Origin: an uncultured Candidatus Saccharibacteria bacterium | Lineage (GTDB): Bacteria > Patescibacteriota > Minisyncoccia > Phycocordibacterales > UBA12088 | Reading direction: 5' to 3' | Assembly (NCBI GenBank): GCA_964459635.1 | Contig: CAYWMQ010000001.1 | Span: 8,342 to 72,341, forward strand | DNA: 64,000 nucleotides | Shown here: piece after piece, positions 6,213 to 49,200 of the stretch | How positions within the stretch are numbered: position 1 is the first letter of the stretch | Layout: each line of letters starts with the position of its first letter | The notes under the pieces: generated by a model | What the model saw: the letters and a program-made list of their open reading frames with translations, nothing else | Database searches by the model: none | What the model was told of the DNA's origin: nothing | Translations under genes and position numbers: made by a program

Positions 6213-6236
6213 GGCCGGAGGGGAAACCTTCCGGCC
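6213..6236 (+). terminator. hairpin GGCCGGA-ggggaaacct-TCCGGCC after the pncB stop
   Basis: 7-bp GC stem about 40 nt after the TAG (6173-6175), followed by TTGACTTTATCG, which also supplies the -35 of the next promoter. Confidence 0.4.
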
Positions 6237-6264
6237 TTGACTTTATCGCTAGAATGTGTATAAT
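6237..6264 (+). promoter_or_regulatory. sigma70-like promoter TTGACT-16-TATAAT
   Basis: TTGACT at 6237-6242 and TATAAT at 6259-6264 with a 16-nt spacer, 63 nt upstream of ATG 6327. Confidence 0.5.
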
Positions 6265-6673: not shown

Positions 6674-6708
6674 AACTCTAAACTCTAAACTCAAAACTCT
6701 AAACTTTG
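6674..6708 (+). repeat. heptanucleotide tandem array (AACTCTA)n, about 5 units
   Basis: aactcta aactcta aactcaa aactcta aactttg, 47 nt upstream of the ABC ATPase ATG. A related array actctaa actctac actatcc lies at 36279-36299 upstream of ATG 36316. Confidence 0.6.
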
Positions 6709-6754: not shown

Positions 6755-7681
6755 ATGGCTGATGCTGCACTTTCACTACGCGACCTGCGCAAGACGTACG
6801 AAAACGGTACGGAGGCGCTGAAGGGTATCACGCTTGCCGTACCGCGCGGTGAGCTCTTTGCATTGCTCGGGCCGAACGGCGCGGGAAAGTCTACGACCAT
6901 AGGCATCATTACCGGGCTCACCAACAAGACAAGCGGCACAGTGGAAGTCTTCGGCACGTCCATCGACGCCGACCACGACAAGGTGAAGTCGTATATCGGG
7001 CTTGTGCCGCAGGAGATGAACTTCAACATCTTTGAGAAGGTCATAGACATCGTATGCACGCAGGGTGGGTACTACGGGCTCCCGCGCAAGCTTGCCGCAG
7101 AACGCGCGGAAAAGTATCTCACCGCGCTTGGTCTCTGGGATAAGCGCAACGACAAGGGGCGCACGCTCTCGGGCGGCATGAAGCGCAGACTCATGATCGC
7201 GCGCGCACTCGTCCATGAGCCGGAGCTTTTGATATTGGATGAGCCGACGGCGGGTGTGGACGTGGAGCTTCGCCGAGGCATGTACGACTTTCTGCGGCGG
7301 CTCATAGCAGAGGGTAAGACCATCATCCTCACCACGCACTACCTGGAGGAAGCGGAAGAGCTCGCGAAGGGGCTCGCTATCATCAACAACGGCACGATAG
7401 TGGCGGAGGGCACGGTAAAGCAGCTCCTTGCAGGTATGGACGCAGCCACGTACGTGCTCGACGTTGCCGGGCCGGTGCGCGCAGACGCTTTGGGTGTGGT
7501 ACGCGCGTATGCACCTCACGTGCGCGACAGCGATACGCTTGAGCTCACTGCGCGTACTGATGCGACACTGGGTCGTGCAGTCGCCCTGCTTGAGCAGGGT
7601 GGCGTGTCGGTAGTGAGCGTGCGACCCAAGGGGAATAGGCTGGAAGAATTATTCGTCAAGTTGACGAATAATTCAAAGTAA
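6755..7681 (+). CDS. ABC transporter ATP-binding protein
   Basis: Walker A GPNGAGKST, ABC signature LSGGMKRRL and Walker B LLILDEPT. It is adjacent to an ABC-2 permease. Confidence 0.9.
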   Translation: MADAALSLRDLRKTYENGTEALKGITLAVPRGELFALLGPNGAGKSTTIGIITGLTNKTSGTVEVFGTSIDADHDKVKSYIGLVPQEMNFNIFEKVIDIVCTQGGYYGLPRKLAAERAEKYLTALGLWDKRNDKGRTLSGGMKRRLMIARALVHEPELLILDEPTAGVDVELRRGMYDFLRRLIAEGKTIILTTHYLEEAEELAKGLAIINNGTIVAEGTVKQLLAGMDAATYVLDVAGPVRADALGVVRAYAPHVRDSDTLELTARTDATLGRAVALLEQGGVSVVSVRPKGNRLEELFVKLTNNSK

Positions 7682-7791
7682 AAAGTCAAAAGTCAAAATG
7701 CAAAAATCCAAGTCAAAATTCAAAAGCTGCGGCACTCGTACCTCTCACTTTTTACTTGCGCTTTTAACTTCTACCTTTTGAATTTTGACTT
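7681..7791 (+). promoter_or_regulatory. AAAAGTC-type heptamer array and a perfect 17-bp inverted repeat between the ABC ATPase and permease genes
   Basis: aaaagtc aaaagtc aaaatgc aaaaatc ... aaaattc at 7681-7728. AAGTCAAAATTCAAAAG (7710-7726) and its exact reverse complement CTTTTGAATTTTGACTT (7775-7791) are separated by 48 nt. The right arm ends 10 nt before the permease ATG 7802 and covers the alternative TTG start 7778. Confidence 0.5.
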
Positions 7792-12929: not shown

Positions 12930-14345
12930 ATGGTCGCACGTATTTTACTGCTTCTTGTGCTGTTTCAGCCTATCTACGTGGCGTTCGGCATGGAGCTCGG
13001 CGATGCAGCAAGCAGTGAGCAGGGAGTAGTGAGCAGTGTCGAAAACGACGCCGAAACCACCAACGAGCAAAGTACTGAGACGAATGCGCAGGATGCTATG
13101 AGCAGTACGGAAAATGCTGCAGATATGGCGAATGTCACTGATGGTGATGGCGCAGACCCGGTAACCACTACGAGTTCGGACAGAGCTGACGCTGGGCCAA
13201 TAGACACCGATGAGTCTGCGACGAATGCGGACGAAGATGCCGCTACGAGCACGGTACCCGATACTCAGTCAGAGATACCTGCCGACGAGGCGAGCAAGGA
13301 AGAGGAAGGGGCGGAAGGCGCTACAAGTACCGATTCAGTGACGAGCGATATAGACGAAAACGCGACCGAGGAGAGCAATGAGGGTACGGAAGCGAGTACG
13401 GAGATTGAAACGCAGACCAACACCGCAAGTAGTAGCGAAGCCTCAGCAACGTCGACAGAGGAAGAAACAATGGAGCCTGTGCTCCCGCCAGCGCCGCTTG
13501 CCCACAGTACCTCATCATACACGTTTGGCGTGGGTGACTGTACGCTCGTAGCAAACGGTGAGTTCTATTGCATCGCTGCGAGCGCCGACCGGGTTGTGAA
13601 TGGCGACCCGCGCGTTTATGCCGAGAAGGACCGTGAGGGTGACAGGGAGATCTACTACTTTGACGGCGTGGAGGTGCATCGCATTACCAACAACGGCTAC
13701 GATGACTTCGCGCCCGTCTTCGACGAGGACACGAAGCGCATCGCGTGGAACGCGATGATACAGGACCGCACACAGGTGATGCTGCACGATATTCAAACGC
13801 AGACCACTCGGCAGGTAACACAGAGCAGTAACACAGCAGGTACACCGCACCTCTTCCACGACTCACTCGTGTGGCAGGAGTGGGTGGACACCAATTGGGA
13901 AGTCTTTCGTGCGGACGCGGATGCGCTCGCGGCGGGGGCTGACGCGTCGGCAGAGCGCCTAACGGACAATGTAGTGCACGATATGTTCCCGCGCGCATAC
14001 GAGGGGCTTATTACATGGCAGCGCGAAAAGGGGCACTCATGGGAGGTGGTAGTGTACGATCTGCGGACACAAAAAGAGCACGCGCTTGAAAAGGAGGAAG
14101 ACACTAAGTACGAAAACCCCCGCTTCGTCCTTTTGTTCGACTCGCGCCATGAAAACGGGGACGTGGAGACGGTGGGCTACGACCTCGACTCGGGTGAAAT
14201 GATGGAGCTCGGCACCAAACCGCGAAGTATCCCCGCACATCCCCAGACGCCGCGCGACGAGACGGAGGATGCACTCCCGAGCGTAAGTCCCATGAATAGC
14301 GTAAAGCCTCTGCGTGATGATGCGGAGGGTACGGATGAGCTATGA
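12930..14345 (+). CDS. secreted acidic protein with a C-terminal PD40/TolB-like beta-propeller repeat region
   Basis: Start chosen at ATG 12930 (MVARILLLLVLFQPIYVAFG, a signal peptide). The track's 12567 extension is Arg-rich and lies over an AT-rich promoter-like island. About 180 aa of the sequence is a D/E/S/T-rich linker. This is followed by REGDREIYYFDGVEVHRITNNGYDDFAPVFDEDTKRIAW-type repeats. The stop overlaps the giant-gene start (ATGA). Confidence 0.55.
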   Translation: MVARILLLLVLFQPIYVAFGMELGDAASSEQGVVSSVENDAETTNEQSTETNAQDAMSSTENAADMANVTDGDGADPVTTTSSDRADAGPIDTDESATNADEDAATSTVPDTQSEIPADEASKEEEGAEGATSTDSVTSDIDENATEESNEGTEASTEIETQTNTASSSEASATSTEEETMEPVLPPAPLAHSTSSYTFGVGDCTLVANGEFYCIAASADRVVNGDPRVYAEKDREGDREIYYFDGVEVHRITNNGYDDFAPVFDEDTKRIAWNAMIQDRTQVMLHDIQTQTTRQVTQSSNTAGTPHLFHDSLVWQEWVDTNWEVFRADADALAAGADASAERLTDNVVHDMFPRAYEGLITWQREKGHSWEVVVYDLRTQKEHALEKEEDTKYENPRFVLLFDSRHENGDVETVGYDLDSGEMMELGTKPRSIPAHPQTPRDETEDALPSVSPMNSVKPLRDDAEGTDEL

Positions 14346-24415: not shown

Positions 24416-24474
24416 GGTGTGTATGAGTGCGCGTACACACGTGGCACAGTGGTATACTTGAGGTGCATCTTGCT

Positions 24475-32412: not shown

Positions 32413-33699
32413 ATGCGAGTGGCATTCGCGCGCTTTTTTCCGTACGTCTACGCGGCGTGTATTGTCGTGCTGGCTGCCGCGCCGCTCGTGTGGGCATATG
32501 CACAGGAAGCTTTCGATACCACGGAGCCTGAGCGTCCACCGGCCGCTATAGAAAGCTCGGCGTCATTTGCGGTGACGCCCGTGGTGTCCAACGAGAAAGC
32601 AAAAGCGCGCGACATCATCAAGAAAGAGCTTTTGCTCGAAAATAAGAGTGCCGAGCGCATAGGGCTGCGCGCCAAAGTGGAAAACGTAGACCCTGGCGGC
32701 GGCGCGGTGTCGTTCGTATCGCCGGGTGAAGCGGATCTGGCTCATTCGCTCGCGAACTGGGTGGAAATAACACGCGGCGTCGTAGAGCTTGAGCCCGGTG
32801 AGAGTCGCAAAGTGCCGTACCTCATACATGTGAACGTTGTGGCGGAGCCGGGGACCTACTATGCGCGCATCGCATTTACGGACGGCTCACCTGAGTATGA
32901 GACTGACAAACGACCTGATGGAACCAGCCTTCTTTTGACGGTAGAGGTGGCTGATGACGCACGCGAGCGCCTGCAGCTGGCCGGTTTTGTTGCGTCCCGG
33001 TCGCTTGTGTTCGGCGCCGACGCGGCGTTCACGTACCGCCTTGAAAATGTGGGCAACAGAGACCTGGAGCCGCGCGGCACTATCCGCATATTCAACAGAC
33101 GCGGCGAGGAGGTCGGGTCTGTGCCGCTCAACGCGGACGGCGTGTCGCTCTCGCCCGCGAGCAAGCAGCAGCTCGCCACGGCATGGAACGCGAGCGGCCG
33201 TTTCGGCAAGTACAAGGCATTTTTGGACCTGGAGTATGGCACGGAGCAGCTCGCGAGTGTGCAGGACACCGTCTACTTTTGGGTGTTCCCATGGAAAGAA
33301 ATTCTCGCGTCCATGTTCGGCGTGCTCGTGCTTGCGGTGGTGGGCACCTATGTCATCCACATGCGCACCATGGCGCGGCCGGCGCATGTGTATGCGCCCG
33401 TGTATCCCGAAGCACAGTCTCGCATGTCACCTAAGTCCGTTCTGATGCCGAGCGGTGCTCGCAGCCACGGCGATTTCGCAGATCAGCCTGTGGCTTCTGC
33501 GGCGCCGGTGCGCGCTACGGCTCAGGCTGCACCTGCTCGCGTCGTAGCTCAGCCTATGCCGGCGGCTCCTCCCGCGGTTGTCCTGGCGCGCAAGGAAGCG
33601 GCATCGCCCGGCCCGGTGGTCTCGCTCGCGCCTCGCAGTCGAGGTGGCTCTCATGTAGATGCTCAAGCTCACACCGTTCAACTCAAACCCCGCCGGTAG
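32413..33699 (+). CDS. membrane-anchored surface protein, paralog 1 of 3
   Basis: ATG 32413 gives the signal peptide MRVAFARFFPYVYAACIVVLAAAPLVWAYAQE. A ~300-aa beta-rich ectodomain carries the motif EPGTYYARIAF. A C-terminal TM helix ILASMFGVLVLAVVGTYVIHM is followed by a Pro/Ala-rich cytoplasmic tail. The architecture is reminiscent of DUF916/DUF3324 cell-surface proteins; this is inference only. Confidence 0.55.
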   Translation: MRVAFARFFPYVYAACIVVLAAAPLVWAYAQEAFDTTEPERPPAAIESSASFAVTPVVSNEKAKARDIIKKELLLENKSAERIGLRAKVENVDPGGGAVSFVSPGEADLAHSLANWVEITRGVVELEPGESRKVPYLIHVNVVAEPGTYYARIAFTDGSPEYETDKRPDGTSLLLTVEVADDARERLQLAGFVASRSLVFGADAAFTYRLENVGNRDLEPRGTIRIFNRRGEEVGSVPLNADGVSLSPASKQQLATAWNASGRFGKYKAFLDLEYGTEQLASVQDTVYFWVFPWKEILASMFGVLVLAVVGTYVIHMRTMARPAHVYAPVYPEAQSRMSPKSVLMPSGARSHGDFADQPVASAAPVRATAQAAPARVVAQPMPAAPPAVVLARKEAASPGPVVSLAPRSRGGSHVDAQAHTVQLKPRR

Positions 33700-35092
33700 G
33701 GTGGCGCTACAAAGTGCCTCGCGTGCACCCACAACAGGGGCGCGGTTTTTCTTGCTTCTTATACTTTCTACTTTCTACTTCCTACTTGCTACTTTCTACC
33801 TTCTACTTTCTACTCCCGTCTTTGCCCAAGACGCCCTCACGCTCACCATCACACCGCCCTTGATACAGGTGAACTTGGATCCCGGGCAAACATGGACGAG
33901 CAGCATTCGAGTAGTGAACGGCAACCGCTACGAGGTTACGGTATACGCAGACCCCGTGCCGTTTACGGCAGAAGGTGAGGGTGGCCGCCCGCGCATAGTC
34001 TTGTCGACCAAAGCAGCGGACAATGCCACGGCAAACGGCGTAGCGGCGTGGCTGGACGTGCCGCAGGAACCTATCATCATCGGCCCCGAGCAGACGCACG
34101 AGGTACCGTTCACCATACGCGTGCCGGCAGACGCGCCGCCGGGCGGACATTATGCCGCGGTCCTGATAGGCAACAAGCCGGGTGCGGGCGCGGCGGAAGG
34201 CGGCACGGTCACGGTCTCAAGCTCTATTGCGTCATTGCTCCTGCTCACCGTTTCCGGCAATATCGACGAGCGCGGGCGTATACGCGACTTTGTGACGGAG
34301 CGGCATCTCTACGATAAGCCTGAGGCGCGCTTTTCGCTGCGCTTTGAGAACCAAGGCAATGTGCACATCCAGCCGCAGGGGGATATAGTCATTTACAACC
34401 ACTTCGGTAAAGAGCGCGGGAGAGTCACCCTTGGCCAAGGGGGCAACTTCGGCAATGTGCTTCCCGGAAGTATCCGTCAGTTCAGCTTCGAATGGATCGC
34501 GGACGCGGGAGGCTGGGATATCGGCCGGTACCGCGCAGAGGCAACGTTTGCATATGGTAAAGACAGCAAACGGTTCGCCAGTGCGACAACATACTTCTGG
34601 GTGCTTCCACTTGGGCGTATCGCGCTGCTTGCAGGCGGCTTGGCGCTGTTCATATGGTTTATCGGGTGGAGCTTGCGGCTTTACGTACGCCGAGCGTTGG
34701 CTCTGGAAGCACAGCGTATCGCTAGCACCGATCCTCCGCTTCAAGCCCGTGCGGCAGTGCGCCCCGCGGAGCCCGTTCAGGAGCATGTGGCACCACAGAT
34801 CGTTTCACCACGTACGTACTTGCGGCCTATCGAGCGAGGTATCGTCGATCTGCGCGCCCTCGCGCGTCCCGTTGATTCCGAATCCGGTCCGCAAGCGGGG
34901 CATGTGCTCGTCAGCCGTTTGCACCGCACGCGCGCGTTTCTACGCAGGTACCGTGTCTTTTTCATCTTCCTTGCCGTCGTAGGGGCAGCGCTTCTGATGG
35001 GGCGGACCTTGCTGCGCGATGTGCTCACGTACGAGCGCGCATACGAAGTGGAGGTGCTGGATCCGGAAGCACCGAAGTCAGACGCACCGTAA
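33659..35092 (+). CDS. membrane-anchored surface protein, paralog 2 of 3
   Basis: Phe/Leu-rich signal peptide ...FFLLLILSTFYFLLATFYLLLSTPVFA-QD. The real start is possibly TTG 33752. Motif PPGGHYAAVLI. C-terminal TM LLAGGLALFIWFIGWSL followed by YVRRAL. Its 5' end overlaps the tail of paralog 1 in another frame. Confidence 0.55.
   Translation: MLKLTPFNSNPAGRVALQSASRAPTTGARFFLLLILSTFYFLLATFYLLLSTPVFAQDALTLTITPPLIQVNLDPGQTWTSSIRVVNGNRYEVTVYADPVPFTAEGEGGRPRIVLSTKAADNATANGVAAWLDVPQEPIIIGPEQTHEVPFTIRVPADAPPGGHYAAVLIGNKPGAGAAEGGTVTVSSSIASLLLLTVSGNIDERGRIRDFVTERHLYDKPEARFSLRFENQGNVHIQPQGDIVIYNHFGKERGRVTLGQGGNFGNVLPGSIRQFSFEWIADAGGWDIGRYRAEATFAYGKDSKRFASATTYFWVLPLGRIALLAGGLALFIWFIGWSLRLYVRRALALEAQRIASTDPPLQARAAVRPAEPVQEHVAPQIVSPRTYLRPIERGIVDLRALARPVDSESGPQAGHVLVSRLHRTRAFLRRYRVFFIFLAVVGAALLMGRTLLRDVLTYERAYEVEVLDPEAPKSDAP
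33762..33817 (+). repeat. heptanucleotide tandem repeat (TACTTTC)n, 8 units (4 perfect), inside the signal-peptide coding region of paralog 2
   Basis: tactttc tactttc tacttcc tacttgc tactttc taccttc tactttc tactccc. The unit is 7 nt, so it is not a multiple of 3. Confidence 0.75.
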
Positions 35093-36675: not shown

Positions 36676-36833
36676 AAACGAAAGGCACCTGCCGATAGCA
36701 GGAAAGTTAAAAGTGCATTACACGCGTTAACGTCGGCGGTCGTCTAACTGGACCTACACGGTCTAAGGCATTTTGGTGGCGTGAAGTCATGGCAAACCGT
36801 CTATGGCTTTCACTCCCGTGTGCTGTTACGTAG

Positions 36834-36861
36834 CGTGTTACGTAGCATGCTACGTAACACG
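36834..36861. promoter_or_regulatory. perfect 28-bp palindrome CGTGTTACGTAGCATGCTACGTAACACG
   Basis: Self-complementary across 28 nt. It has a flanking direct repeat GTTACGTAG (36825-36833 and 36837-36845) and lies in a ~500-bp region with no credible ORF. Confidence 0.5.
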
Positions 36862-36929
36862 CTGTGCGGTAGGTGTTCAGCCGCCCGATTACGCAGCCAA
36901 GCTGTGCGAGTTCTGTTCGGGCGCGCCCC

Positions 36930-36954
36930 ATGTTCGACTTACGAAGTCGAACAT
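36930..36954 (+). other. hairpin ATGTTCGAC-ttacgaa-GTCGAACAT
   Basis: Perfect 9-bp stem with a 7-nt loop in the same non-coding region. It does not form a tRNA cloverleaf. Confidence 0.4.
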
Positions 36955-37049
36955 ACGAGCACACCGACTCAAATGCACCTATAAAATTTCTACTTTTGTG
37001 GACTACGCGCGCTGCTATCTGGCTACTCGGTGTAGTCACGTTTGGATTT

Positions 37050-37094
37050 CCTGCCTGCCGGCAGGCAGGTACATTTTAACTTTTGACTTTTGTT
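37050..37094 (+). terminator. perfect 20-bp GC palindrome CCTGCCTGCCGGCAGGCAGG followed by T-rich heptamers (ttttaac ttttgac ttttgtt)
   Basis: Terminator-like: a GC hairpin followed by TACATTTTAACTTTTGACTTTTGTT. It could end an unannotated transcript from 36676-37050, or act as an operator upstream of the FGE gene. Confidence 0.4.
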
Positions 37095-37178
37095 ACCCTC
37101 CCCCTCCAGGTGGATAAGCTGTTCATGGTGTAGCTCCACTCGCGGTACAATATAGGTACGGATCATATCCGCCCCCGA

Positions 37179-38039
37179 ATGATCCAGTCACTCACACGGA
37201 CCGTTGCGGTCTCTGTGTGCTCCGTTATTTTGACGACGCTTGCAGTGAATGCAACGGACAGCATCAATGTACCCGCCGGTAGCATGCTCGCGGGCGTGTT
37301 TGGGGCGAGTACCTCTGTGGACACCGGTCCGTGTCCCAAAGATATGCGCCTGGTGAAGCAAGCACTCGTTCCCTTTTGTGTAGATGCGTACGAGGCGGCG
37401 GCAGGTGACAGTTGCCCGTATGAGACGCCCCGAAGCGTTGACGAGACGAACAAGAACCTTTCGGGGGCTTCATGTGCACCGGTATCCAAGGCCGGCACCA
37501 CACCATGGCGTTTTGTGGACGTTGTCCAAGCGCAAGCGGCCTGCTCCAGAGCCGGCAAGAGGCTGCTGACTGCAGACGAATGGTACAAAGCCTCACTTGG
37601 AACCCCCGACACGTCGTCAGAGTTTACCGGTGAGCAGTGCAACGTGGCGCGCAACCTCGCCGATGGTGTCGCCCCTACGGGAAGCGCCGCCCGGTGCGTA
37701 TCCGATGCCGGTGCATACGACATGGTGGGCAACGTGTGGGAGTGGGTGGATGGCGCGGTACGTGATGGTGTGTTCGAGGGACGTTCTTTGCCACGGAGCG
37801 GGTACGTGCAGGGCGCGGATACGAGCGGCATAGCGTACGAAACAGCGAGCGGCGCGCAAGCTGCGTTCGGCAGAGACCGCTTCTGGTCGGACAGCATCGG
37901 CACGATGGGGCTGATGCGTGGCGGCTACTTCGACAGCGAAGGTGATGCGGGTGTATTCAGCATATACGCTGCCAGTCCCCCCACCTTTGCCGGGGAGGCG
38001 GTAGGCTTCCGCTGTGCCACTGCACCGAAGAACCCGTAA
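37179..38039 (+). CDS. formylglycine-generating enzyme family protein (FGE-sulfatase / SUMF1 domain), secreted
   Basis: Signal peptide MIQSLTRTVAVSVCSVILTTLAVNA. Hallmark motifs YDMVGNVWEWVDG, RGGYFDSE and a C-terminal GFRCATAP. A possible -10 TACAAT lies at 37146-37151. Confidence 0.8.
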   Translation: MIQSLTRTVAVSVCSVILTTLAVNATDSINVPAGSMLAGVFGASTSVDTGPCPKDMRLVKQALVPFCVDAYEAAAGDSCPYETPRSVDETNKNLSGASCAPVSKAGTTPWRFVDVVQAQAACSRAGKRLLTADEWYKASLGTPDTSSEFTGEQCNVARNLADGVAPTGSAARCVSDAGAYDMVGNVWEWVDGAVRDGVFEGRSLPRSGYVQGADTSGIAYETASGAQAAFGRDRFWSDSIGTMGLMRGGYFDSEGDAGVFSIYAASPPTFAGEAVGFRCATAPKNP

Positions 38040-38124
38040 GTCACATATGGAAGAACGAGAAAGTCCACCCCCTGTAATAGAGGAGCATGCGCAGCGAGAC
38101 GCATCGACCTTGTGTGTACGTAAG

Positions 38125-40020
38125 ATGGCAGGCCGTCACTTTTCGTTGCGCTTAGGCAGTCGACAGCCTTTTTTGTCTTTTGTCTTTTGTCTTTTGTATC
38201 TCGTGCTCCTGTTCTCTTTTCTCTATACGTCGCACTCGGCATTTGCCACAAGCTATCTCTCTCGCATTTCAGACCTTATCTCCACCAGTGCGCCGGGCGC
38301 GGCTGCGAACCACACGCTTCGTTTCACTATAGCTCAAGCGATACCGCCCAACGGTGCCATTGAAGTGCTTTTCAACCGCGGGGGTTTCACTATCCCCGGG
38401 GCACTTAATTTTACCGATGTGGACCTTGGTTTTTCGGCAGTATCCGGGGGCCCCTATACCGAGCGTCCGCTATCTTCCGTGCAGACGGGCGGTACGGACC
38501 GGGTGGTGGTCACAAGCGGTAGCGCGGGCAAGATACGGTTCGACCTCAACACGTCGGTAGGTATTGCGGCAGGCAGCGAGTTGCGCATCAAGATAGGCAC
38601 GAACGCCACGTTCGGTACGGTGGGTGATCAGCGCATTCTGCTCCCTACGGCCACCACATCTCACCCGGTGACTGTGTACACATACGATGCGGCTGATGCC
38701 GAGCTTGACTACGGCGAAACGCGTATAGCGGTAGTGGAGCAAGTGACAGCGGGCCCGGTAGATACCGATGACGTCACGCCGCCCGTGGTGCTTGCGGCAT
38801 ACCCTTCCGGGCTGCTTCAAGTGGGAACGAGGGCTGTACAGATGTGGGTAGTTACCGATGAGCTTACGGCGTGCAGATGGGCGACCTCAAGTATGGCGTA
38901 CGCAAGCATGCCGTACTCTTTCACCTCCACAAGCACATTCGGGCTTGCGTACTGGAATTTTGCCACATACGGCGGACTTGAAGATGATACTGAGTACAAT
39001 GCGTACATCCGCTGCGTTGACTTTCGTTCTAACGAAATAGATCCCGATTACATCCTTTCCTTTACCGTAGGTATTACGCCCGGTAGTGCAAGCTCAACAG
39101 CCACCACGACCGGCACAGGTACCGGCACAGGTACGGGCACATCGACCGGCACATCGACCGGCACCGGTACCGGCACCGGTACCGGAGGAGGACCGTCGGG
39201 TTCCGGCTCGGGCAATGGCCCCAATGGCGGCGATGGGGCAGGGTCGGGCGGGGGTGGGTCCGGGCAGTCGGGCTCCGGTGACAAGCTGCCCCAGGCGGAT
39301 GTGCAGGTGTCGGGATGGGCGTACCCGGGCTCTACGGTAACACTGCTTCGCGACGGGGCGATAGTGGCTACGCAGGCCGCGGGAGGCGGCGGCGAGTTCC
39401 TGCACCTTACGGAAGGTATCGACCGCGGCATATACTCCTTTGCCGTGTATGCGACCGACTCAAAGGGAACACGTAGTGCGACATACGCCACTACGCTCGG
39501 CCTGCGTTCGAATACGCTCAACAAGCTTGCGAACATTATGCTCCCGCCCACCGTCTCGGTCGTGGCCGCTTCCGTAGACCCGGGTAAGCCTGTCGAGGTG
39601 AGCGGTTACTCCGCGCCAAGTGCCAAAGTCACCGCATGGCTGCGGCCCAGGCTTGCGGTGGTATCGGCGGCGGACGTGGTGGCGAGTACCACCGCGCTCG
39701 CGAACGGCATATACACGCTCAGCATTCCGACCACGGGGCTCACACAGGGTACGTACGAGCTCGTTGCGCAAGCTGCTCATGCGAACGGCACCGTGCAGAG
39801 CGACAAGAGCGCGCGGCTTGCCGTAGGACTTGGCGTTCAAGTGACACAAAACACGGGCTGCAAAGACGGCGACCTCAACTGCGACGGCTCAGTGAACCTC
39901 ATAGACTTTTCGATCCTTCTTTTCAACTGGAACACCGCGAGCACCGTTGCAGACATAAACAAAGACGGGACCGTCTCGCTGCCGGACTTCTCGATACTGC
40001 TCTTCAATTGGACGGGGTAG
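38125..40020 (+). CDS. secreted surface protein with a Thr/Gly-rich linker and a C-terminal type-I dockerin
   Basis: ATG 38125 gives MAGRHFSLRLGSRQPFLSFVFCLLYLVLLFSFLYTSHSAFA. Beta-rich domains, then the linker TTGTGTGTGTGTSTGTSTGTGTGTGTGGGPSGSGSGNGPNGGDGAGSGGGGSG, then more Ig-like domains. The final 55 aa, DLNCDGSVNLIDFSILLFNWN and DINKDGTVSLPDFSILLFNWTG, form two dockerin calcium-binding repeats. Confidence 0.7.
   Translation: MAGRHFSLRLGSRQPFLSFVFCLLYLVLLFSFLYTSHSAFATSYLSRISDLISTSAPGAAANHTLRFTIAQAIPPNGAIEVLFNRGGFTIPGALNFTDVDLGFSAVSGGPYTERPLSSVQTGGTDRVVVTSGSAGKIRFDLNTSVGIAAGSELRIKIGTNATFGTVGDQRILLPTATTSHPVTVYTYDAADAELDYGETRIAVVEQVTAGPVDTDDVTPPVVLAAYPSGLLQVGTRAVQMWVVTDELTACRWATSSMAYASMPYSFTSTSTFGLAYWNFATYGGLEDDTEYNAYIRCVDFRSNEIDPDYILSFTVGITPGSASSTATTTGTGTGTGTGTSTGTSTGTGTGTGTGGGPSGSGSGNGPNGGDGAGSGGGGSGQSGSGDKLPQADVQVSGWAYPGSTVTLLRDGAIVATQAAGGGGEFLHLTEGIDRGIYSFAVYATDSKGTRSATYATTLGLRSNTLNKLANIMLPPTVSVVAASVDPGKPVEVSGYSAPSAKVTAWLRPRLAVVSAADVVASTTALANGIYTLSIPTTGLTQGTYELVAQAAHANGTVQSDKSARLAVGLGVQVTQNTGCKDGDLNCDGSVNLIDFSILLFNWNTASTVADINKDGTVSLPDFSILLFNWTG
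38168..38197 (+). repeat. heptanucleotide tandem repeat (CTTTTGT)3 plus a variant unit, inside the signal-peptide coding region of the dockerin protein
   Basis: cttttttgt cttttgt cttttgt cttttgt; rotated, this is (TTTTGTC)n, matching the intergenic TTTTGAC arrays. Covers codons 15-25 of the gene. Confidence 0.75.
39109..39192 (+). repeat. 12-nt tandem repeat (ACCGGCACAGGT-like, 7 units) encoding the TGTG linker
   Basis: accggcacaggt x2, acgggcacatcg, accggcacatcg, accggcaccggt x2, accggaggagga. In-frame microsatellite. Confidence 0.7.
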
Positions 40021-40024
40021 CGTT

Positions 40025-40166
40025 GAAAACTGAAAAACAAGATAACTGAAACAAAAAAAACAACGACATGCGTCTCGGACGATGCGATTGAGGTATCAAG
40101 TTGTGTAGGGGCAGTCGCTTTAAGCTCGCGTTTTTTGTTTTCTCTATCTTTTGTTTTTCAGTTTTC
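40025..40166 (+). promoter_or_regulatory. long inverted repeat of heptamer arrays between the dockerin gene and hsp20
   Basis: GAAAACTGAAAAACAA (40025-40040) and its exact reverse complement TTGTTTTTCAGTTTTC (40151-40166) flank 110 nt that contain an A8 run. The left arm starts 5 nt after the dockerin-gene stop. Confidence 0.45.
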
Positions 40167-40287
40167 TCTTTATCCACACGTTACGCTCGCATATGCACAT
40201 GCGCATGCACGTGTGGTGCTATACTCTGAGTAACAACGCTCCGGGCGACCGGCCATCACGCGTTCTTTAGGATAAGTTCTATCTCCT

Positions 40288-40794
40288 ATGGCTACATTCA
40301 TGGATAAGCTCAAAGGCCGCGGCCTTACCGAAAAGGGCGGAAGTCTCTCCGCCGGCAGTGCCGCCGATCATGCGGGTACTCCCGCGATGGGCCACCAAGA
40401 GGTGGTCCCGAGCCGCGCACTCCAGCTTCCCGTAGACGTGTTCCAATCGGACGACGAGATCATCATATACGCACAGCTTGCCGGTATGGACATGCATACG
40501 CTCGACGTTTCCATAGCGGGAGATAATGACGTGGTGGCCATCCAAGGCACAAGCTTGCGCCCCGAGCATCTCATGCATGATGCGCATGCGGGCAGAAATG
40601 GGGACTATACGCTCGAAGAGTGCCACTGGGGTGATTTTTACCGCCAGATCATCTTGCCCGATGAAATTGATCCGGAGCGTGCGGAAGCCAAAACGAAAGA
40701 CGGCGTGCTTGCGCTACGTCTGCCGCTGGCAGGCAAGGCTGTCAAAGGCCGCAAACTGAACATCGTGCGTGCGGATGAACAGCCGCAGCAATAG
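40288..40794 (+). CDS. Hsp20/alpha-crystallin family small heat-shock protein
   Basis: Alpha-crystallin domain from VDVFQSDDEIIIYAQLAGMDMHTLDVSIAGDNDVVAIQGT to GDFYRQIILPDEIDPERAEAKTKDGVLALRLP. TATACT lies upstream at about 40220. Confidence 0.8.
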   Translation: MATFMDKLKGRGLTEKGGSLSAGSAADHAGTPAMGHQEVVPSRALQLPVDVFQSDDEIIIYAQLAGMDMHTLDVSIAGDNDVVAIQGTSLRPEHLMHDAHAGRNGDYTLEECHWGDFYRQIILPDEIDPERAEAKTKDGVLALRLPLAGKAVKGRKLNIVRADEQPQQ

Positions 40795-40810
40795 CGCACG
40801 AGCTCGCGCT

Positions 40811-42346
40811 ATGCTCGCGTCGAATATACACCGTGTTGTTCATAAAAATGCCGTAGCGCAGGCGTATACCCGCGTCAAAGTTTTTGTGGCGCTTGTTTTT
40901 TTTCCGTTTTTCTTGTTTCTTGTTTCTTGTTTCTTGTTTTCTACCTCCGCCCACGCCGCCTCCTACTCCTTTTCGCCCGCGTCCGGCTCCTACGAGGTCG
41001 GCAAAACGTTCACCGTGTCCGTCATGGTGGACCCGGGCACCGATGCGGTGAACACGGGCGATGGAGCGCTCTCGTATGACACCGCCAAGCTCACCGCAGT
41101 GTCGGTGTCCAAAGAGGGTTCCGTTTTCAATCTTTGGGTGACCGAGCCCGCGCTTAACGCGGGAGCGGGCACGGTGACTTTTGCGGGTGGTGCCACCACG
41201 CCCTTTTCAGGCTCTAAGCGAGTCGTCACGGTTAGCTTCAAAGCGAAGGCGGAGGGCGCCGCCACGGTAAAACTTGATAAGGGTACGCTGCTGGCAGGCG
41301 CCGGTCAGAACGTGCTTGCCGGATCCCTGCCCACCGCTTCTTTCACCATCACTCCCGCTGCCGCCAAGCCGCCGGTGGAGGAAAAGCCGGACACCCCTGC
41401 ACCCGCAAAGCCGGCACGTGCGGTGAATATCCCCGTACCTGATGCTCCTGTTATCAAGAGTTCCACGCACAAAGAAGAGGGCACCTGGTACAACCAGAAC
41501 ACCGTGAAGCTCACGTGGGACCTACCCTACGGTGTGACCGGGCTCAAGAAGCTGTGGAGCGAGAAAGCCGACGCAGAGCCCACCGAAGTGCATGAGCCGC
41601 CCATACCCGACTGGACAAAGGAGAACGTGGCCGACGGTGTGTGGTATTTCCATGCCGCGTATAAGAACAGGGGCGGATGGGGAAGCTCCACCGCGTTCAA
41701 GGTGCAGATAGATACTACGCCACCGAAAGAGTTTACCGTGACGGGCACCGGAGGAGACCTTGCCGCGCAGCTTTCATGGGCTGCTGAGGATGAACTCTCC
41801 GGTGTGGTCGTATACCGCATAGCCGTAGACGACGGCCGGCCGCGGGATGTACAGCCCTCCGAGCTTATAGCCGGCGGATATACGCTCACCAACATAGATC
41901 CTGGCGAGCATAGCATTATCGTGACGGCTGTCGATGCTGCGGGCAACGAGCGGGAAGCTCGCACTAAGGTCACCGCGACAGGTGAGCTCCCTCCCGCAGA
42001 AGGAGCGCAGGAAGTTGAAACATCCGGCTTCGGAGCCATCTACTGGGTATCACTCATCTTCATGGCGCTTCTTGCAGGTGCGGTAACGCTCCTTGTGCTG
42101 GAGCGGCGCAAGCATCATGAGGAGCGCGAGCTCATCAAGCGTGAGGCGATGGAGGCGGGCGACAAGCTCATCAACGTATTCGGCGTGCTGCGCGACGAGA
42201 TAGAAGAGCGCGTGCTTGACCTCTCGCACAAGCCCAACATGACCGACAACGAGCGCGAGATATTGGAAGGCCTTAAAGATGCCCTGGATGTATCCGAAGA
42301 GCTTATCGACAAGGAGATAGAAGACATTCGCAAGCTCCTCAAGTAG
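40811..42346 (+). CDS. membrane-anchored protein with an N-terminal cohesin-like domain, Pro-rich linker, FN3/Ig-like domains, a C-terminal TM and a cytoplasmic coiled-coil tail
   Basis: ATG 40811 gives the signal peptide MLASNIHRVVHKNAVAQAYTRVKVFVALVFFPFFLFLVSCFLFSTSAHA. Cohesin-like beta-sandwich pattern SGSYEVGKTFTVSVMVDPGTDAVNTGDGALSYDTAKLTAVSV...GTVTFAGG...VVTVSFKAKAEGAATVKL. Pro-rich linker EEKPDTPAPAKP. TM AIYWVSLIFMALLAGAVTLLVL. The cohesin assignment comes from pattern recognition only. Confidence 0.55.
   Translation: MLASNIHRVVHKNAVAQAYTRVKVFVALVFFPFFLFLVSCFLFSTSAHAASYSFSPASGSYEVGKTFTVSVMVDPGTDAVNTGDGALSYDTAKLTAVSVSKEGSVFNLWVTEPALNAGAGTVTFAGGATTPFSGSKRVVTVSFKAKAEGAATVKLDKGTLLAGAGQNVLAGSLPTASFTITPAAAKPPVEEKPDTPAPAKPARAVNIPVPDAPVIKSSTHKEEGTWYNQNTVKLTWDLPYGVTGLKKLWSEKADAEPTEVHEPPIPDWTKENVADGVWYFHAAYKNRGGWGSSTAFKVQIDTTPPKEFTVTGTGGDLAAQLSWAAEDELSGVVVYRIAVDDGRPRDVQPSELIAGGYTLTNIDPGEHSIIVTAVDAAGNEREARTKVTATGELPPAEGAQEVETSGFGAIYWVSLIFMALLAGAVTLLVLERRKHHEERELIKREAMEAGDKLINVFGVLRDEIEERVLDLSHKPNMTDNEREILEGLKDALDVSEELIDKEIEDIRKLLK
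40912..40939 (+). repeat. perfect heptanucleotide tandem repeat (CTTGTTT)4, inside the signal-peptide coding region of the cohesin-like protein
   Basis: cttgttt x4 at 40912-40939, with one more unit at 40893-40899. Covers codons about 34-43. Confidence 0.8.
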
Positions 42347-43277: not shown

Positions 43278-46200
43278 GTGCAAAATATCGCGCCGGTCGA
43301 TGCGGTGATCGAAGGTGTCGAGTACGCAGAGCCTGCCCCGGGCGAGACAGCAAGCGGTGCAGAGGTTGCGCCGGAGGCGGAGCGGGGCGCGGATGCGAGT
43401 AGTGCCGAGACACGTGCACGCCAAGCGGACGAGGATGTGCGCGTGTGCACCGTACTGGATATCCCCTGTCACACCATACGCTACGACGGCTTTGATATCG
43501 GCAGCGTACTTGCGGATCACACAGTACGCGAGTACACACTGCGGCTTTCGCTTGGTGCGCGAGTCGAGGGCGAGAGCTTCACCCCGGACAAGCTGCTTGT
43601 GCGGTACATGAGCGCCGGCACATGGCACATTGCGGGAGAAGTGGTGATCGACCGCGAACTGTCCAACTTCGACAGCGGCGGGCACTTCTCATTCCCCTTG
43701 CCGGGGCTCACCGCGTGGGATTCCTTGGCCGACCTTGCTGTGGAGCTTGAGTACGTTCGGCATGGTACTGCAGAGACAGAGTTCTATGTCGACAGCGTGT
43801 GGGTGGATGCGCGGTATGCGGTGGTGGACGAGGGTGAGGAGCTGCAACTGGCACCGAACATCTTACCCGAGCTCGCGGTACTAGAAGACTCGCGGCGGCC
43901 GGACATGCTTCTTGTCGGGGATGAGCGCATTACTCTGCCGAGGACAGACGCCGTGCCGGGCGACGAGCTCGTCATTCGCAGCGACCATGACGTATACGAT
44001 GGCCTCACACGGGTGCGCTCGTACCTGTCCGTTACGAACCACGGAGACACGGAAATGTATGCGGATCTCGTAGTACGTACGGGCCGCCATGCGGAAGTAG
44101 TGGGACTGCGTGAGCGCGTGCGTGCGGTGCCGCAGTCTACGTTGGTGCCCGAGTACAGTGACGTGGCGTATTTGTGTGAAGGTGGGTGGCAGCCGGGTAG
44201 CATGTCGCAGGGTGTAGCCGCGCCATCTGACGTACCGGCAGATACAAACACGACAGACGGGGAAGAAGTGGAGGATGGCACAGCGAGTTCCTCCGTATCG
44301 ATGACGGAAGCGCTTGTGAGCGATGGTACGGGATCCGCCACCCTAGATGACGTCGGCCCGGACGCTTCAGGTGAGACTGCAGACTCGGAGGGCGAACCCT
44401 ATACCTGCGCCGCGACAGGTGAAGAGCGCGTGTGCTCGTCTCTCAATGATGACGAGACGAACTGCATCGCCGAAGAAGAACGCATTTCGACCACTGAAGA
44501 AGTTGCATACCGTGAAGGATGGCAGCCGGTCGGCCTGCGGCCCTACCGTGAGCGCACGAGTTTCTGGCAGCGAGTGCTTCGCAGCGAGGCCACCACTACG
44601 TCGGAGTTGCCCAATGCGGTGGAGGCAGAGGAGCGTGTACGGCTTGCTCCGCGGGAGACGCGCTTTTTCGCGGTGGACGTCGAAGTGGGTGTGCAGCGTG
44701 CGGGTGAGTTTGCTTTTGAGCTTCGCGCGGGCGACACGCATGCCGAGCGGCGCATGTGGTGGCGCAGCGGCTACTCGCGTCGTGTGCCTCTTACCGTTCC
44801 TCGTGTAGAATCCGAAGCGCCCGAGGTGCCACTCCTGTATCGCGTGCGGATAGAGGAGAATGACGTGCCCGGGTTTTTCACCACAGCGCGGTTGGACGGA
44901 GGGGATGTGCGTTTTTATGATGCGGCGCTTCGTCTTGAGTTACCGAGCAAAGTGGTCTCATTTTCATACGTTGAACAGGCGGCAGAGTACTTGGTGGAGC
45001 TTGGAGAAAGCTCGACACAGGCGAGCTCAAGCATCTTTGCATATTACGGTAACGATACGGTGATGGAAGCGTCACGGATGCGCGCCCCCTCGCAAACAGA
45101 TACGCCCATAGAGTACGTCCGTGCGGCGGAGTCCGCTACGGGGGCGCTCGTGTCTGTGACAAGTTTGCGTGACGGCAACACCATGCGTACGGGTGCGGGA
45201 GGTACGGAGGTGACACTCCACGAAGGTGAAGCGCTTGATATGGTGCTGGGAGAGGAGCCGCTCTATGCTCGCGGGCCCCTGCTCATACGCCCGGCCGACA
45301 CCGTGTCCTCAAAGGAAATGCGCGCGTTCGCGCTTACGCTTCCTGCGCATACCTACAGCCTCGCGCAAGGCACGTCGAGCCTCACGTATGTGGTAGAGCG
45401 CTACGCGAGCACAAGCCCCGAGCTGCGCTTTGGAGACGTGGAAGAGCTTCCGGTACCTGCGGTCGGTATTTTTGAGCCGCTCTCCTTTACCGACCAGCTC
45501 TCGCGCATACTGTACTTGCGCTCACTCACGGGCCCCGCGTACCACGACTTCCTTGAAGAGCTGCGCGACTTTGAGCTTGGCGATGAAGTGGTGTTTAAGC
45601 TCCGGTACAAGCCACAGCGGTGGGGTATCACGCGCTTTTTCCGCGGGCTTGTGCGCGACCGCCTCGCCACAGTGGCGGGCGTGCGTCTCCTGTACGGTGG
45701 GGAGGTCCTCACGGACGCGCGTTTTGACGTCTCGTACGGCGCAGAAGGCGAGTGGACCATCAAGCTTACAGAAGCGCCGAGAAGCCTCGTACCGGGCAAG
45801 TACTCCGTCGAGCTCACCATTGACGAAGTGGGCGAACTCTACACCGACACCTTTGATTTTTACTTCGGGGTGCTTGCCGTGAACACGCCGGAAGCCACGT
45901 ACGAGACGGGCAGCGTGGCCGAGTTCCACATGGCCGCGCTCGACGATCGTGGTGACACCATATGCGATGCGGAGCTGCGCTTGCTCATCACACCACCGTC
46001 CGGTCTGGCGGAGGAGATACCGGTAGAGCGCTCCACCACCTGCGGTCCCAACAACGTGACCGATGAGCCCGACTACCGCGCGCTCTATCGTTTGCGGGAG
46101 AGTGGCACGTACGACCTTGTTCTCACGCATGTAAACAGGGAGGGTGAGATAGTGCACCAGGTGCGCGATGCAGTGCACGCGGCCGAGCGCATGCCGTACA

Positions 46201-49200
46201 CGATAGAGCGGGCGGGCGCCACGCGCATCTGGCCGAAAGCGCCTTACACCATGCACCTCACCGTGTCGGCACGCGAGGACTGGAGCGGCACGTTGGTGGA
46301 GGCACTGCCGCGTGACTTCGTAGTGACGGACGCGGGCGGTGGGGAGTCGTCGGTGTGGGGCGGGGCCAAGCGTCTGAGTTGGGAGCTTACACTTGCGGCG
46401 GGTGAGTCGGTCACACTTTCGTACGAGTACGATGCGCCCGATCGCTCGCCGTACCTCTACCTCCTCGGGCCCGCGGAGCTTCGTGTGGGAGAGCAGGCTG
46501 CGTACCGCGAAGCAAAGAGCTGGAAGCTCGCCTCCGACGCGCTCGGGCAGTACACCGAGTCCTACGTCACCTTTACCCCAACGGTAAATGACACGTGGAC
46601 GACCATTGATCTCTCCGGTGCGCCGTACAGCATACCCGCGAACGCCATTCTTGAGATCGCGATCTCAAACGTGGACACAGGTAACGAGGCATACGGCGGT
46701 GTACGCAGCGGTGCCTCGACCACGCTCGACCGCCGTGTACGCATTCATGAGGCCGAGCCGTCAGGATCGGACGTCACCACCATGTTCGTACAAGCCAGTG
46801 CAACGTCAAGCATTCAGTACTACTCCGACGACACCAATGACATACGCTTCACCATTCTTGGCTACTGGACGAGCGGCACGTATACCGAGCGTTGGAGTGT
46901 GTTTGGACCTGCGGCGAACAACTGGACAACAGACTGGAACCTTAACACGTACGGCGTAGCCGACGGCAACGTGGCGGAAATCGTCTTAGTGAACACAGAT
47001 GGTTCAAATGAGTACGCTGCAGGCGTACGCACACTAGGCTCTACACTCACGCGCGAGGTGACCATACACGAGCCTGAACAGGGCGGCGTAGATACCGCTA
47101 CCATGCTTGTACGCGCGAGTACCTCCAACGCGACCATACGGTATCGTAACGCAAACGCTGCAATAGACTTCTACGTGGCAGGCTTCTTTTCGACGTTGCC
47201 CACCGGTCTTGAGTACTATGAGCGGTGGGACGACCTCGGCGGGCCAGCCAGCGCAAACACATGGACCGATCGCAGGCTCGACGACATCACCGTTCCCAAT
47301 TCAGCCATCGCAGATGTTGCGTATGCCAACACTGCTGCAGACGACACCACAGTCACGATCGGTGTGCGTGCCAACGGCTCGTCACTTTCCCGCACCGCCG
47401 AGCTGCACGAGGCTGAGGCGGGTGGCCAGAACCACGCGCGGTCGCACGTCACGGCAGGCAGTGATGCAAGCAGCACCATCGAATACTTCACCGGTAACAC
47501 CGCATACGACTCATTCCGGCTCGCCGGATACTGGGCAGCCGCCAACTATCCGCCCGATGCACCAACGCTCCACGACATACCGTTTGACAATGAAAAAACA
47601 GGGAGCTCGACACCGTACTTCGAGTTCACCGCATCCGACCCCGATGGCTCTAGCGATATCGTCTATCAGGTGCAGTGGGATGATGATGCCGACTTGGATG
47701 CTTCACCTCTGGGTGACCGCTCAAGTGATAATGAAACGGGCTGCTCTCCCAACTGTTTTGCCAATACCGTAAGCGGTGGCGACACCTCGCCTTTTACCGA
47801 GGGGCAGCGGATACGTTTCAGCATACAGAGTGCGCTCACGAGCGGTACCACATACTACTGGCGTGTACGTGCCAAAGACAGCAGCGGTTCGAACATCTAC
47901 TCCGAATGGACAGAGGTGCGTTCTTTCACATACGTGGCCGACACGAATCCGAAAGCGTGGTACCAAACAGCCGATGCGCAGTTTGACGGTGGTACTTTTT
48001 CGGGCGCGGAAACGTACGGTGCCAATTCCGTACGCCTTGCGACCACACCGCCCGTTGGCGCCATGGTGGCGTACGGCGAAGGTACGGTGGCGACACCACG
48101 GTACCAGATATGGAACGGTACCGCGTGGGGCGGAGAGCTCAGTGCGCAGAGCGCTACGGGTAGAATAAGCTGGACCGTACTGCGTGCCGCTCCCACACGG
48201 GATGAATATGTCCTGGTGACGCAAACCGCCACAGGCACCGTATTGGCGCAGGTGTACAACGGCACAAGCGGTACGTGGGGCAATGCACGCGTGATGACGA
48301 GCGCGGCCCCAAGCGCCGATCGTCGCGCGGTTGACGTGGCGTACCGCGGTCTTTCGGGTGAGGCGGTGGTGACGTACTGCGATGGTGATACCGACCCAAG
48401 CACGAACATTTGGAACGGCACGAACTGGTCCGCCACCACCACCCTCGACACGCAGTTCAACAGCGCCTGCAACTGGGTCGCGCTCGCTGCAAGTGACGCG
48501 AGCGATGAAATAGCGGCGGTCGTGCAAGCCGACAGTACGAACACCACCTCCGACTTTGAGGCGCAGATACTGACCGGTACTACGTGGGGCAACAGTTACA
48601 CCGGGGGCAGCAATACGGCGGGTGAAGAATTTCTTGAACGCATGTCGATCGCGTATGAGGAGTCGGGGACGGAAGCGGTGGTCGTCGTAGGCAACGGCGG
48701 CACCGCCAGTTTTGTCAGTGCGGTCTGGAACACTACGGCACAAACATGGACCGCAAACGCAAATCGCGGCACGCAAGACGACTTTGAGTGGTCTGAGTTT
48801 GCTGTGGATGATGGGTCCGACAACCTCGGTCTATGCTACATAGACGAGGACAACCAAGTCCACATCGCCAAGTGGAACGGCACGAGTAACACGTGGGACG
48901 CGTACGATGCCGCGGGTGACCAAATAGACACTGGCGGAAAGGCAAACGGTACAACCGACTACCACGCTCGGCCCGTCACGTGCCGGTACGAAACAACAGC
49001 AGGCCGCGATGGCTATCTCATGGTGCCGTACTCTGATACCACGAACGCGCGGTATCGTGTGTGGAGCACATCACTTACCGTTGAGCAGTCCATCTCGACC
49101 ATAGAGGATTCATGGACCGTGAGCAGTGCGCGCACGGGGGATGGCCTCATTCTCACGCTTTGGCGCGACGATACCAACGACCGCTTCGACTTCTCCTACT

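Follow-up and report, generated by a model that had tools for sequence, protein, structure and literature searches.

A perfect heptanucleotide array in the signal-peptide core of a Patescibacteria dockerin protein and its potential as a latent frameshift switch

In a 64-kb stretch of DNA from an uncultured Candidatus Saccharibacteria bacterium (contig CAYWMQ010000001.1; the whole stretch analysed is hereafter called the window), the gene for a 631-amino-acid (aa) dockerin-domain protein predicted to be secreted (38125..40020, + strand) carries a perfect array of a 7-nucleotide (nt) unit, TTTTGTC x3.86 (38171..38197, + strand), in the part that encodes the hydrophobic core (h-region) of its signal peptide. 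Gain or loss of one or two units truncates the product in silico, non-triplet arrays recur in signal-peptide cores of related genomes, and a single allele of the dockerin array is on record. We read the array, with roughly even confidence, as a repeat born by slippage that is tolerated in the signal-peptide core and forms a latent switch held in the ON state.

The array and the signal peptide that it encodes

Window positions 38168-38197 read CTTTTTTGT CTTTTGT CTTTTGT CTTTTGT, an imperfect leading unit with two extra T (38168..38176, + strand) followed by three perfect units, together 30 nt or 10 codons. Tandem Repeats Finder (TRF) reports the tract at 38171-38197 in the rotation TTTTGTC (x3.9, 100% matches, score 54), and an exact repeat scan counts 3.86 copies, which cover codons 15-25 counted from ATG 38125. 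A previous annotation made from the letters of the window (the sequence-only reading) had reported a 7-nt array in the signal peptide of the dockerin protein, with perfect units at these codons; sequence, TRF and exact scan confirm the array, and the codon positions hold with ATG 38125 as the start.

Compositional simplicity is typical of signal-peptide cores, and the tract could in principle be a chance low-complexity T-rich hydrophobic segment or an assembly artefact. However, perfect period-7 arrays of at least 3 copies were absent from all 200 dinucleotide-preserving window shuffles and from all 20,000 shuffles restricted to the signal-peptide segment, and a Logan contig assembled independently from another run (L001, SRR13617030; reported in at least 20 samples) matches the window exactly over 36834-40938. 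Because neither shuffle set reproduces the tract and the independent contig is identical, we give neither chance nor artefact any appreciable credence.

The dockerin reading frame opens at 38014; ATG 38125 gives the 631-aa product used here, and the public gene call (P0001) starts at the in-frame ATG 38047 and gives 657 aa. The gene assignment draws on this open reading frame (ORF), on a C-terminal Pfam Dockerin_1 match (residues 582-625 of the 631-aa protein, E 2e-6; a Big_13 match is weak and below the cutoff) and on ~100 orthologues of at most 69% identity, all of which, where a source name is given, are labelled Patescibacteria. Loci of the genome collection are titled Paceibacteria, Parcubacteria and related groups, and the closest match among the species representatives of that collection, which do not include the source genome, is 63% identical.

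The signal-peptide coding segment spans 41 codons (38125..38247, + strand), divided into the n-region MAGRHFSLRLGSRQ, the h-region PFLSFVFCLLYLVLLFSFLY and the c-region TSHSAFA, an architecture read from the sequence and the orthologue alignment without a predictor. The N-terminus of the protein is MAGRHFSLRLGSRQPFLSFVFCLLYLVLLFSFLYTSHSAFA followed by TSYL. At this A-x-A site the conserved mature portion of its orthologues also begins; their alignment shows ~27 variable residues and then conservation starting ATSYL..STSAPG. With its basic n-region, hydrophobic h-region and A-x-A c-region, the segment has the make-up of a Sec-type signal peptide probably cleaved by signal peptidase I (SPase I), and together with the dockerin domain and a cohesin-domain partner encoded two genes downstream it points to a protein that is secreted or surface-exposed. 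The array-encoded peptide FLSFVFCLL forms the first half of the h-region. Measured to the serine in the conserved SAP motif, the presequence has 54 residues against an orthologue median of 41 and is as long in 2 of 54 orthologues, a length that fits an insertion of ~7-13 residues.

Two sister arrays lie in signal peptides encoded nearby. The h-region (FFLFLVSCFLF) of the secreted cohesin-domain protein is encoded by a perfect TTTCTTG x4.43 (40909..40939, + strand; TRF and exact scan), and the signal peptide of ORF 33659-35092, whose product is secreted and of unknown function, contains a decayed TACTTTC x7.6 with 89% matches (33762..33814, + strand; TRF), so that three array-bearing secreted-protein genes fall within 8 kb. 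The window holds six period-7 arrays at a TRF score of at least 40, against none in shuffles: the three signal-peptide arrays (33762, 38171, 40909), two intergenic ones (6674, 7675) and a weak gene-internal one (13011); a seventh, at 37074, is weaker still (TRF score 31). Residues F, S, C and Y are plentiful in the array-coded cores, and A, L and V in the remaining N-terminal hydrophobic segments of the window. Three of the TTTCTTG units (40909-40929) encode F-L-V-S-C-F-L, which includes a lipobox-like L-V-S-C that is probably coincidental, because the orthologues carry an A-x-A cleavage site.

Frame consequences of a change in unit number

In silico, loss of one or two units of the dockerin array yields products of 66 and 74 aa, and gain of one or two units products of 81 and 73 aa, whereas a change of three units in either direction keeps the reading frame. 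No upstream start rescues the main frame after a unit change, the remaining candidates being only TTG and GTG codons that lie within the array or immediately 3' of it. Because steps of one or two units truncate the product and steps of three stay in frame, the array is structurally an opa-like frameshift switch, and the sister arrays at 33762 and 40909 have equal frame consequences in silico. The switching proposed in the sequence-only reading is thereby upheld as regards the frame, since unit steps truncate the product to 66-81 aa, and goes beyond the record as regards alleles, of which there is a single one.

Direct reading of the TTTTGTC array gives the cyclic heptapeptide F-C-L-L-S-F-V in all three frames, because 7 mod 3 = 1. 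The array itself is always hydrophobic, and ON or OFF is decided only by its junction with the downstream sequence. Three hallmarks of contingency loci are present in the gene, namely a perfect non-triplet repeat at the 5' end, loss of the full-length product upon a change in unit number, and a product predicted to be secreted or surface-exposed.

Unit number in public assemblies

Two further hallmarks of contingency loci, variation in unit number and natural OFF alleles, were not found at the level of consensus assemblies, on which all counts given here are based and in which minority alleles are invisible. The homologue search for the dockerin protein returned no count variant of the array; it gave the exact protein P0001, which forms a one-member cluster, and then a next match at 64%. 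The product that starts at ATG 38125 has no exact-protein record, and the 657-aa product and the proteins of its neighbours FGE and HSP20 all trace to a single, identical Logan contig of 4105 nt. Nor did the homologue search return strain variants of FGE that could carry a variant dockerin 5' end. Across the searches for dockerin, cohesin and FGE homologues, the sole match above 70% identity beyond exact copies was a 98%-identical cohesin variant (P0102) whose repeat count is unchanged. At consensus level the count of the dockerin array is fixed.

The cohesin array offers a comparison between strains. In strain L002 (SRR14126295), whose cohesin locus is 97.9% identical to that of the window over 2.7 kb, the array has the identical count of 4.43 units, and two amino-acid changes lie just upstream of it. 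Every one of the ~14 signal-peptide arrays keeps the frame, and no intergenic array, of 44, resembles a disrupted or frameshifted signal peptide. The unit-number polymorphism that the sequence-only reading anticipated was not borne out at consensus level: one dockerin allele is known, from an identical contig in at least 20 samples, and the cohesin count is equal at 97.9% identity.

One observation on assembly bears on the cohesin array. In the SRR136170xx runs, contig L001 stops at 40938, and ten downstream contigs, each from a different run, begin at 40910 or, in one of the ten, at 40912. Logan uses a 31-mer assembly graph and, on that assumption, the purely periodic 31-mer 40909-40939 is the sole sequence missing between the contigs in ten metagenomes; this k-mer must therefore occur in a second context. 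Two contexts are equally plausible, an allele with more TTTCTTG units and a second locus that has the TTTCTTG unit, the latter because units are shared between genes in the related locus L067 and related 11-mer units recur in L146 and L148. A different contig break, at 36834/36861, was considered as a polymorphism and rejected, as it falls in a palindrome (TGTTACGTAGCA..TGCTACGTAACA).

Non-triplet arrays in the signal-peptide cores of related loci

The array is one case of a recurrent habit of Paceibacteria, in which signal-peptide cores are built from AT-rich or GT-rich non-triplet tandem repeats. We surveyed 160 sources (1.86 Mb) made up of the window and related Paceibacteria loci, the window being the part of its source genome that the set covers, and sought repeats in orthologues at the DNA level, 7-aa periodicity at the protein level being too insensitive. 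At a TRF score of at least 30, 17 of the 22 non-triplet arrays in ORFs of at least 150 aa lie within the first 240 nt, where a fraction of 0.21 was expected (binomial p=3e-8), and the triplet-period arrays of the 160 sources are mostly internal to ORFs. Period 7 is among the commonest non-triplet periods of these loci and is concentrated in few genomes.

Orthologues of all three array-bearing genes of the window carry such arrays. The dockerin orthologue of L067 (38% GC) has TATTTTC x6.1 plus a 1-nt insertion in its signal peptide, and that of L096 has TATTCCC x3.7. In the L067 orthologue of ORF 33659, TATTTTC x4.1 (6227-6255) occupies the same site; this product is 34% identical to that of the window (E 5e-51), and the alignment begins at the cleavage site. 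The L069 orthologue of ORF 33659 has a period-7/8 array. The signal-peptide core of the L087 cohesin orthologue is encoded by a period-4 array, TGTT x6 (5593-5615), and the cohesin orthologue of L146 is also array-bearing. Further signal-peptide cores consist of period-10 or period-11 (GTTTAGTGTCA-like) arrays (L146 642-683 and 4121-4163; L148 2663-2708 and 5154-5196; L154 1191-1232), and within L146 and L148 related units are reused across several genes.

The perfection of the arrays spans 100% to ~70% matches, which suggests a birth-and-decay series, and the copy numbers (~4, 4, 7.6, 4, 6 plus a 1-nt insertion, 4) fit an expansion that started from one unit and kept the frame. Between L146 and L148, orthologous 11-mer arrays at ~85-91% identity differ by substitutions only and are unchanged in length. 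Separately, inverted GGAATAT/ATATTCC heptamer arms flank the start and the h-region coding part in L125 (1475-1565) and L096 (3165-3238); lying around similar signal peptides (..PYS[IV]FPIP..), these arms may form a hairpin over the translation start.

A tolerated repeat or a contingency locus

N-terminal enrichment of non-triplet arrays is compatible with two models. Under tolerance, the h-region is the only coding context that accepts a T-rich non-triplet repeat in every frame, and slippage products persist there provided that the net length restores the frame; under contingency, selection favours the position for the ON/OFF switch that it offers (PMC3315296). The account that we favour follows the former. 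A young microsatellite would arise by replication slippage within the h-region of a Sec-type signal peptide and, because every frame of the repeat encodes the same peptide, whose residues F-C-L-L-S-F-V are all acceptable there, it would be tolerated, with total length alone mattering. Gain or loss of one or two units would then truncate the product and make the tract a latent ON/OFF hot spot, and selection would keep it ON; the tract would behave as a by-product that is tolerated, as distinct from a switch of demonstrated high frequency. What favours tolerance over contingency is the uniform ON state, together with the counts kept between close relatives and the presence of decaying arrays.

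Whether exploited or not, a perfect 4-copy tract would very probably be a local frameshift hot spot, because heptanucleotide tracts near the 5' end of a Pseudomonas gene raise frameshifting 150-fold when two copies are present and by a factor above 10^4 when there are six (10.1101/2024.05.01.592015); by this analogy the mutability of the 4-unit (27 nt) tract should be 10^2-10^4 times background. Several observations weigh against tolerance. Each 7-nt step shifts the frame, so that reaching 4 units requires OFF intermediates or multi-unit slips, and a stepwise build-up is easier to account for where the cell can do without the protein for a time or even gains from its absence, as the logic of a contingency locus has it. 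Two of the three signal-peptide arrays in the window are still perfect, as ongoing turnover would have it. The graph break at the 31-mer 40909-40939 in ten metagenomes is what a longer co-existing TTTCTTG allele would give, and consensus assemblies, blind to minority alleles, are compatible with switching at 1e-4 to 1e-2.

These points lend some weight to a true contingency locus, in which high-frequency slipped-strand mispairing would toggle the secreted dockerin protein, and likewise, independently, its cohesin partner and the product of ORF 33659. We consider this possible but somewhat unlikely. It would account for a perfect non-triplet repeat at the 5' end of a surface gene with clean truncation upon a change of 1-2 units, for the presence of three such genes within 8 kb with array-bearing orthologues elsewhere, and for the coincidence, in ten samples, of the break in the assembly graph with the cohesin array; strong hypermutability of heptanucleotide tracts of 2-6 copies in Pseudomonas speaks for it too. 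Coding repeats in the opa leader peptide are a precedent (PMC3960869), and N-terminal enrichment of frameshift-capable repeats, here at p = 3e-8, has been proposed as a signature of phase variation (PMC3315296). On the other side, no count variant of the dockerin array is on record although the identical contig occurs in at least 20 samples, the cohesin count is unchanged at 2% divergence, and related imperfect arrays evolve by substitution alone. None of the ~14 arrays is OFF, whereas OFF alleles are numerous in the genomes of classical phase-variable species; the dockerin array has only ~4 units, compared with ~7-28 in opa; and the graph break is explained equally well by a second locus with a TTTCTTG unit.

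An action of the heptamers at the RNA level, through -1 ribosomal frameshifting at T TTT TTG (38169-38175) or a regulatory 5' structure, is very improbable. CCT TTT TTG does match X XXY YYZ in the zero frame, but UUG in the A site is a poorly slippery codon, the alternative frames stop at 38332 and 38363 (within ~60 codons) and encode nothing conserved, the coding array has neither an inverted partner nor a stable local structure, and the window has no Rfam match. As a programmed -1 frameshift site the motif was rejected, being present without a downstream structure or a functional product in an alternative frame.

Intergenic heptamer hairpins and their relation to the coding array

The sequence-only reading had joined the coding array to intergenic TTTTGAC units as one slippage-prone satellite family. 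Such units do occur at 7766-7791 and 37081-37087, but in arrays that are degenerate. Between genes for an ABC ATPase and a permease (7675..7791, + strand), (AAAGTCA)n at 7675-7726 faces TTTTAAC TTCTACC TTTTGAA TTTTGAC at 7762-7791, and the two form a 17-bp stem (7710-7726/7775-7791). The array TTTTAAC TTTTGAC TTTTGTT (37074..37092, + strand) belongs to a 400-nt intergenic region (36696-37095) between inverted AAAGTTAAAAGT/ACTTTTAACTTT arms, and 37079-37095 is predicted to fold back onto the A-rich arm 36696-36714. The 360-nt spacer of this region is highly structured, and the region is full of perfect hairpins, including palindromes at 36824-36856 and 37051-37070, with a minimum free energy of -158 kcal/mol over 411 nt; it could be a non-coding RNA or a mobile element, and Rfam and tRNA scans of the window, this region included, gave no match. 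Directly 3' of the dockerin stop lies a further long hairpin (40025..40166, + strand), with an A-rich arm at 40025-40058, a T-rich arm at 40131-40166 and a fold energy of -53.6 kcal/mol (z = -4.4).

The same design, an A-rich heptamer arm, a GC hairpin and a T-rich heptamer arm, stands 3' of genes in other genomes (L087 4762-4868, after the orthologous dockerin gene; L061 10730-10839; L011 7836-7949; L022 15937-16036; L147 1432-1521). In these inverted pairs the A-rich arm comes right after a stop codon and the T-rich arm before the next gene, often round a GC hairpin, and the motif AAAGTTAAAAGT recurs in genomes whose GC content ranges from 43 to 59%. The pairs resemble unusual terminators or mobile elements of the MITE/REP type. 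The arrays at 7675-7791, 36696-37095 and 40025-40166 all have inverted partners, and a search near the coding arrays at 38171, 40909 and 33762 found none.

That the coding arrays and the intergenic TTTTGAC/TTTTAAC arrays form one family, the signal-peptide repeat deriving from or exchanging with T-rich hairpin arms (for example as a captured upstream arm), seems to us improbable. Both kinds have a period of 7 and are AT-rich against a genomic GC content of 59%; TTTTGTC and TTTTGAC are one base apart, the 37074-37092 array even ends in TTTTGTT, and TACTTTC at 33762 is one base from the AACTTTC arm in L087. T-rich arms lie just upstream of genes, the inverted arms of L125 and L096 lie within 5' coding regions, and the F/S/C/Y composition of the array-coded cores sets them apart from the A/L/V-rich N-terminal segments of the window. 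The three coding arrays nevertheless have three different units, two of which do not match TTTTGAC. By our own enumeration, likeness within one mismatch has a prior of ~1-in-6 per array (1 of 6 circular arrangements of T5GC), and one TTTTGAC-like unit among three coding arrays is unremarkable for that reason. Degeneracy (73-92% matches) marks the intergenic arrays, most of which are partnered and fold into hairpins, AACTCTA at 6674 being without an obvious partner; the dockerin array, its unit one mismatch away, lacks the inverted partner typical of the intergenic AAAGTYA/TRACTTT arms, as do the other coding arrays; and no flanking similarity between coding and intergenic arrays was found. The kinship put forward in the sequence-only reading is weak.

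Other intergenic heptamers lie close to start codons. The unit AACTCTA occurs x4.6 in the window (6674-6705) and x4.7 in L147 (1489-1521), 24-50 nt upstream of start codons. In L022 (15937-16036) and L070 (14674-14699), heptamer arrays stop 5-7 nt upstream of a start codon between ABC-ATPase-like and membrane-protein ORFs, which we read, from their sequences, as probable ftsE and ftsX; the window has its counterpart in the array that separates the ABC ATPase gene from the permease gene.

Comparison with known systems and implications

Repeats of 7 nt are known from other bacteria in other settings. In Haemophilus influenzae, hmw1A and hmw2A resemble the present case in that a 7-bp repeat controls a surface adhesin, but their repeats lie in the promoter or 5' untranslated region, number 10-30 units and tune transcription, not the reading frame. 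The STRR heptanucleotide repeats of cyanobacteria show a similar lineage-specific abundance of 7-nt repeats; being intergenic, they are closer to the intergenic arrays of the window than to the coding array, and they have other units and belong to an unrelated phylum.

Among the closest analogues in design is Neisseria opa, in which the number of CTCTT units determines if translation from the ATG runs into the frame of the mature protein (PMC3960869; 10.1101/2020.09.16.300947). Both are pyrimidine-rich non-triplet repeats in the hydrophobic-leader coding part of a surface-protein gene. The opa unit is, however, a pentamer in the gene of a proteobacterial outer-membrane beta-barrel, whereas here ~4 heptamer units precede a Patescibacteria dockerin protein; the two share no homology, the dockerin array is an analogue outside the Opa family, and opa switching has been measured at ~1e-3 per generation, while the dockerin array has a single allele on record. 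The GGTGCCC tract of pflu0185 in Pseudomonas fluorescens is in frame at 1, 4 and 7 copies, and a route from 1 to 2 to 4 copies has been observed (10.1101/2024.05.01.592015). Like the dockerin array it is a 7-nt repeat near the 5' end in which copy steps shift the frame; unlike it, the unit is GC-rich, the gene encodes a cytoplasmic regulator, and the tract arose in a laboratory evolution experiment that imposed alternating selection and measured switching directly. Frameshifting repeats in or next to the signal-peptide coding regions of surface proteins are also reported, CT repeats in Helicobacter pylori oipA and poly-C in Gardnerella nanH3 (PMC10564699); these differ in having mono- or dinucleotide units and length variation documented within strains.

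The class of mechanism is well known, and what appears new, as far as our searches show, is a candidate in Patescibacteria and the recurrence of signal-peptide cores made of non-triplet repeats: among the top-ranked full-text literature matches, nothing relevant was found on repeat-mediated phase variation or simple-sequence repeats in Patescibacteria or the Candidate Phyla Radiation (CPR). A wider proposal, which we put forward only as a speculation, is that Paceibacteria (CPR) use non-triplet repeats in signal peptides as independent contingency switches of a conserved cohesin-dockerin module, with repeats perhaps seeded by T-rich hairpin arms. If true, this would be the first described repeat-based phase variation in the CPR, and it would vary the host-contact surface of episymbionts. 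A true contingency locus would give a host-attached CPR bacterium a variable surface display, and if the tract switches, uncultured Patescibacteria with reduced genomes would share the bet-hedging trick of Neisseria, Haemophilus and Helicobacter for a cohesin-dockerin surface system. Even without switching, cores built repeatedly from units of 4, 7, 8, 10 and 11 nt inform the origin and lengthening of signal peptides, and they are a caution for gene callers and assemblers, since contigs break and start-codon calls differ at such tracts.

Gene neighbourhood and other features of the window

The dockerin gene is preceded by the gene for an FGE-sulfatase-like protein (37179-38039) and followed by an HSP20 gene (40288-40794; Pfam PF00011 in the contig gene table) and the gene for the 511-aa secreted cohesin-domain protein (40811..42346, + strand; Pfam Cohesin E 5.5e-8; P0197/P0102). 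Homologues of FGE and dockerin adjoin in L096, and those of dockerin, HSP20 and cohesin stand in the order of the window in L087. Many same-length contigs are common to the dockerin, cohesin and FGE homologue searches, and the order FGE-sulfatase-like, dockerin, HSP20, cohesin (37179-42346) therefore appears to be conserved among related loci.

Three giant ORFs lie on the + strand of the window, at 14342-24415 (3357 aa), 24427-30312 (1961 aa) and 43278-62726 (6482 aa), and their Pfam matches in the contig gene tables are only faint or to DUF families (DUF7483, DUF2341). Within the dockerin gene itself, a period-12/36 repeat (ACCGGCACAGGT) at 39107-39185 encodes the TGTGTG..STGT linker of the protein and is an ordinary in-frame repeat.

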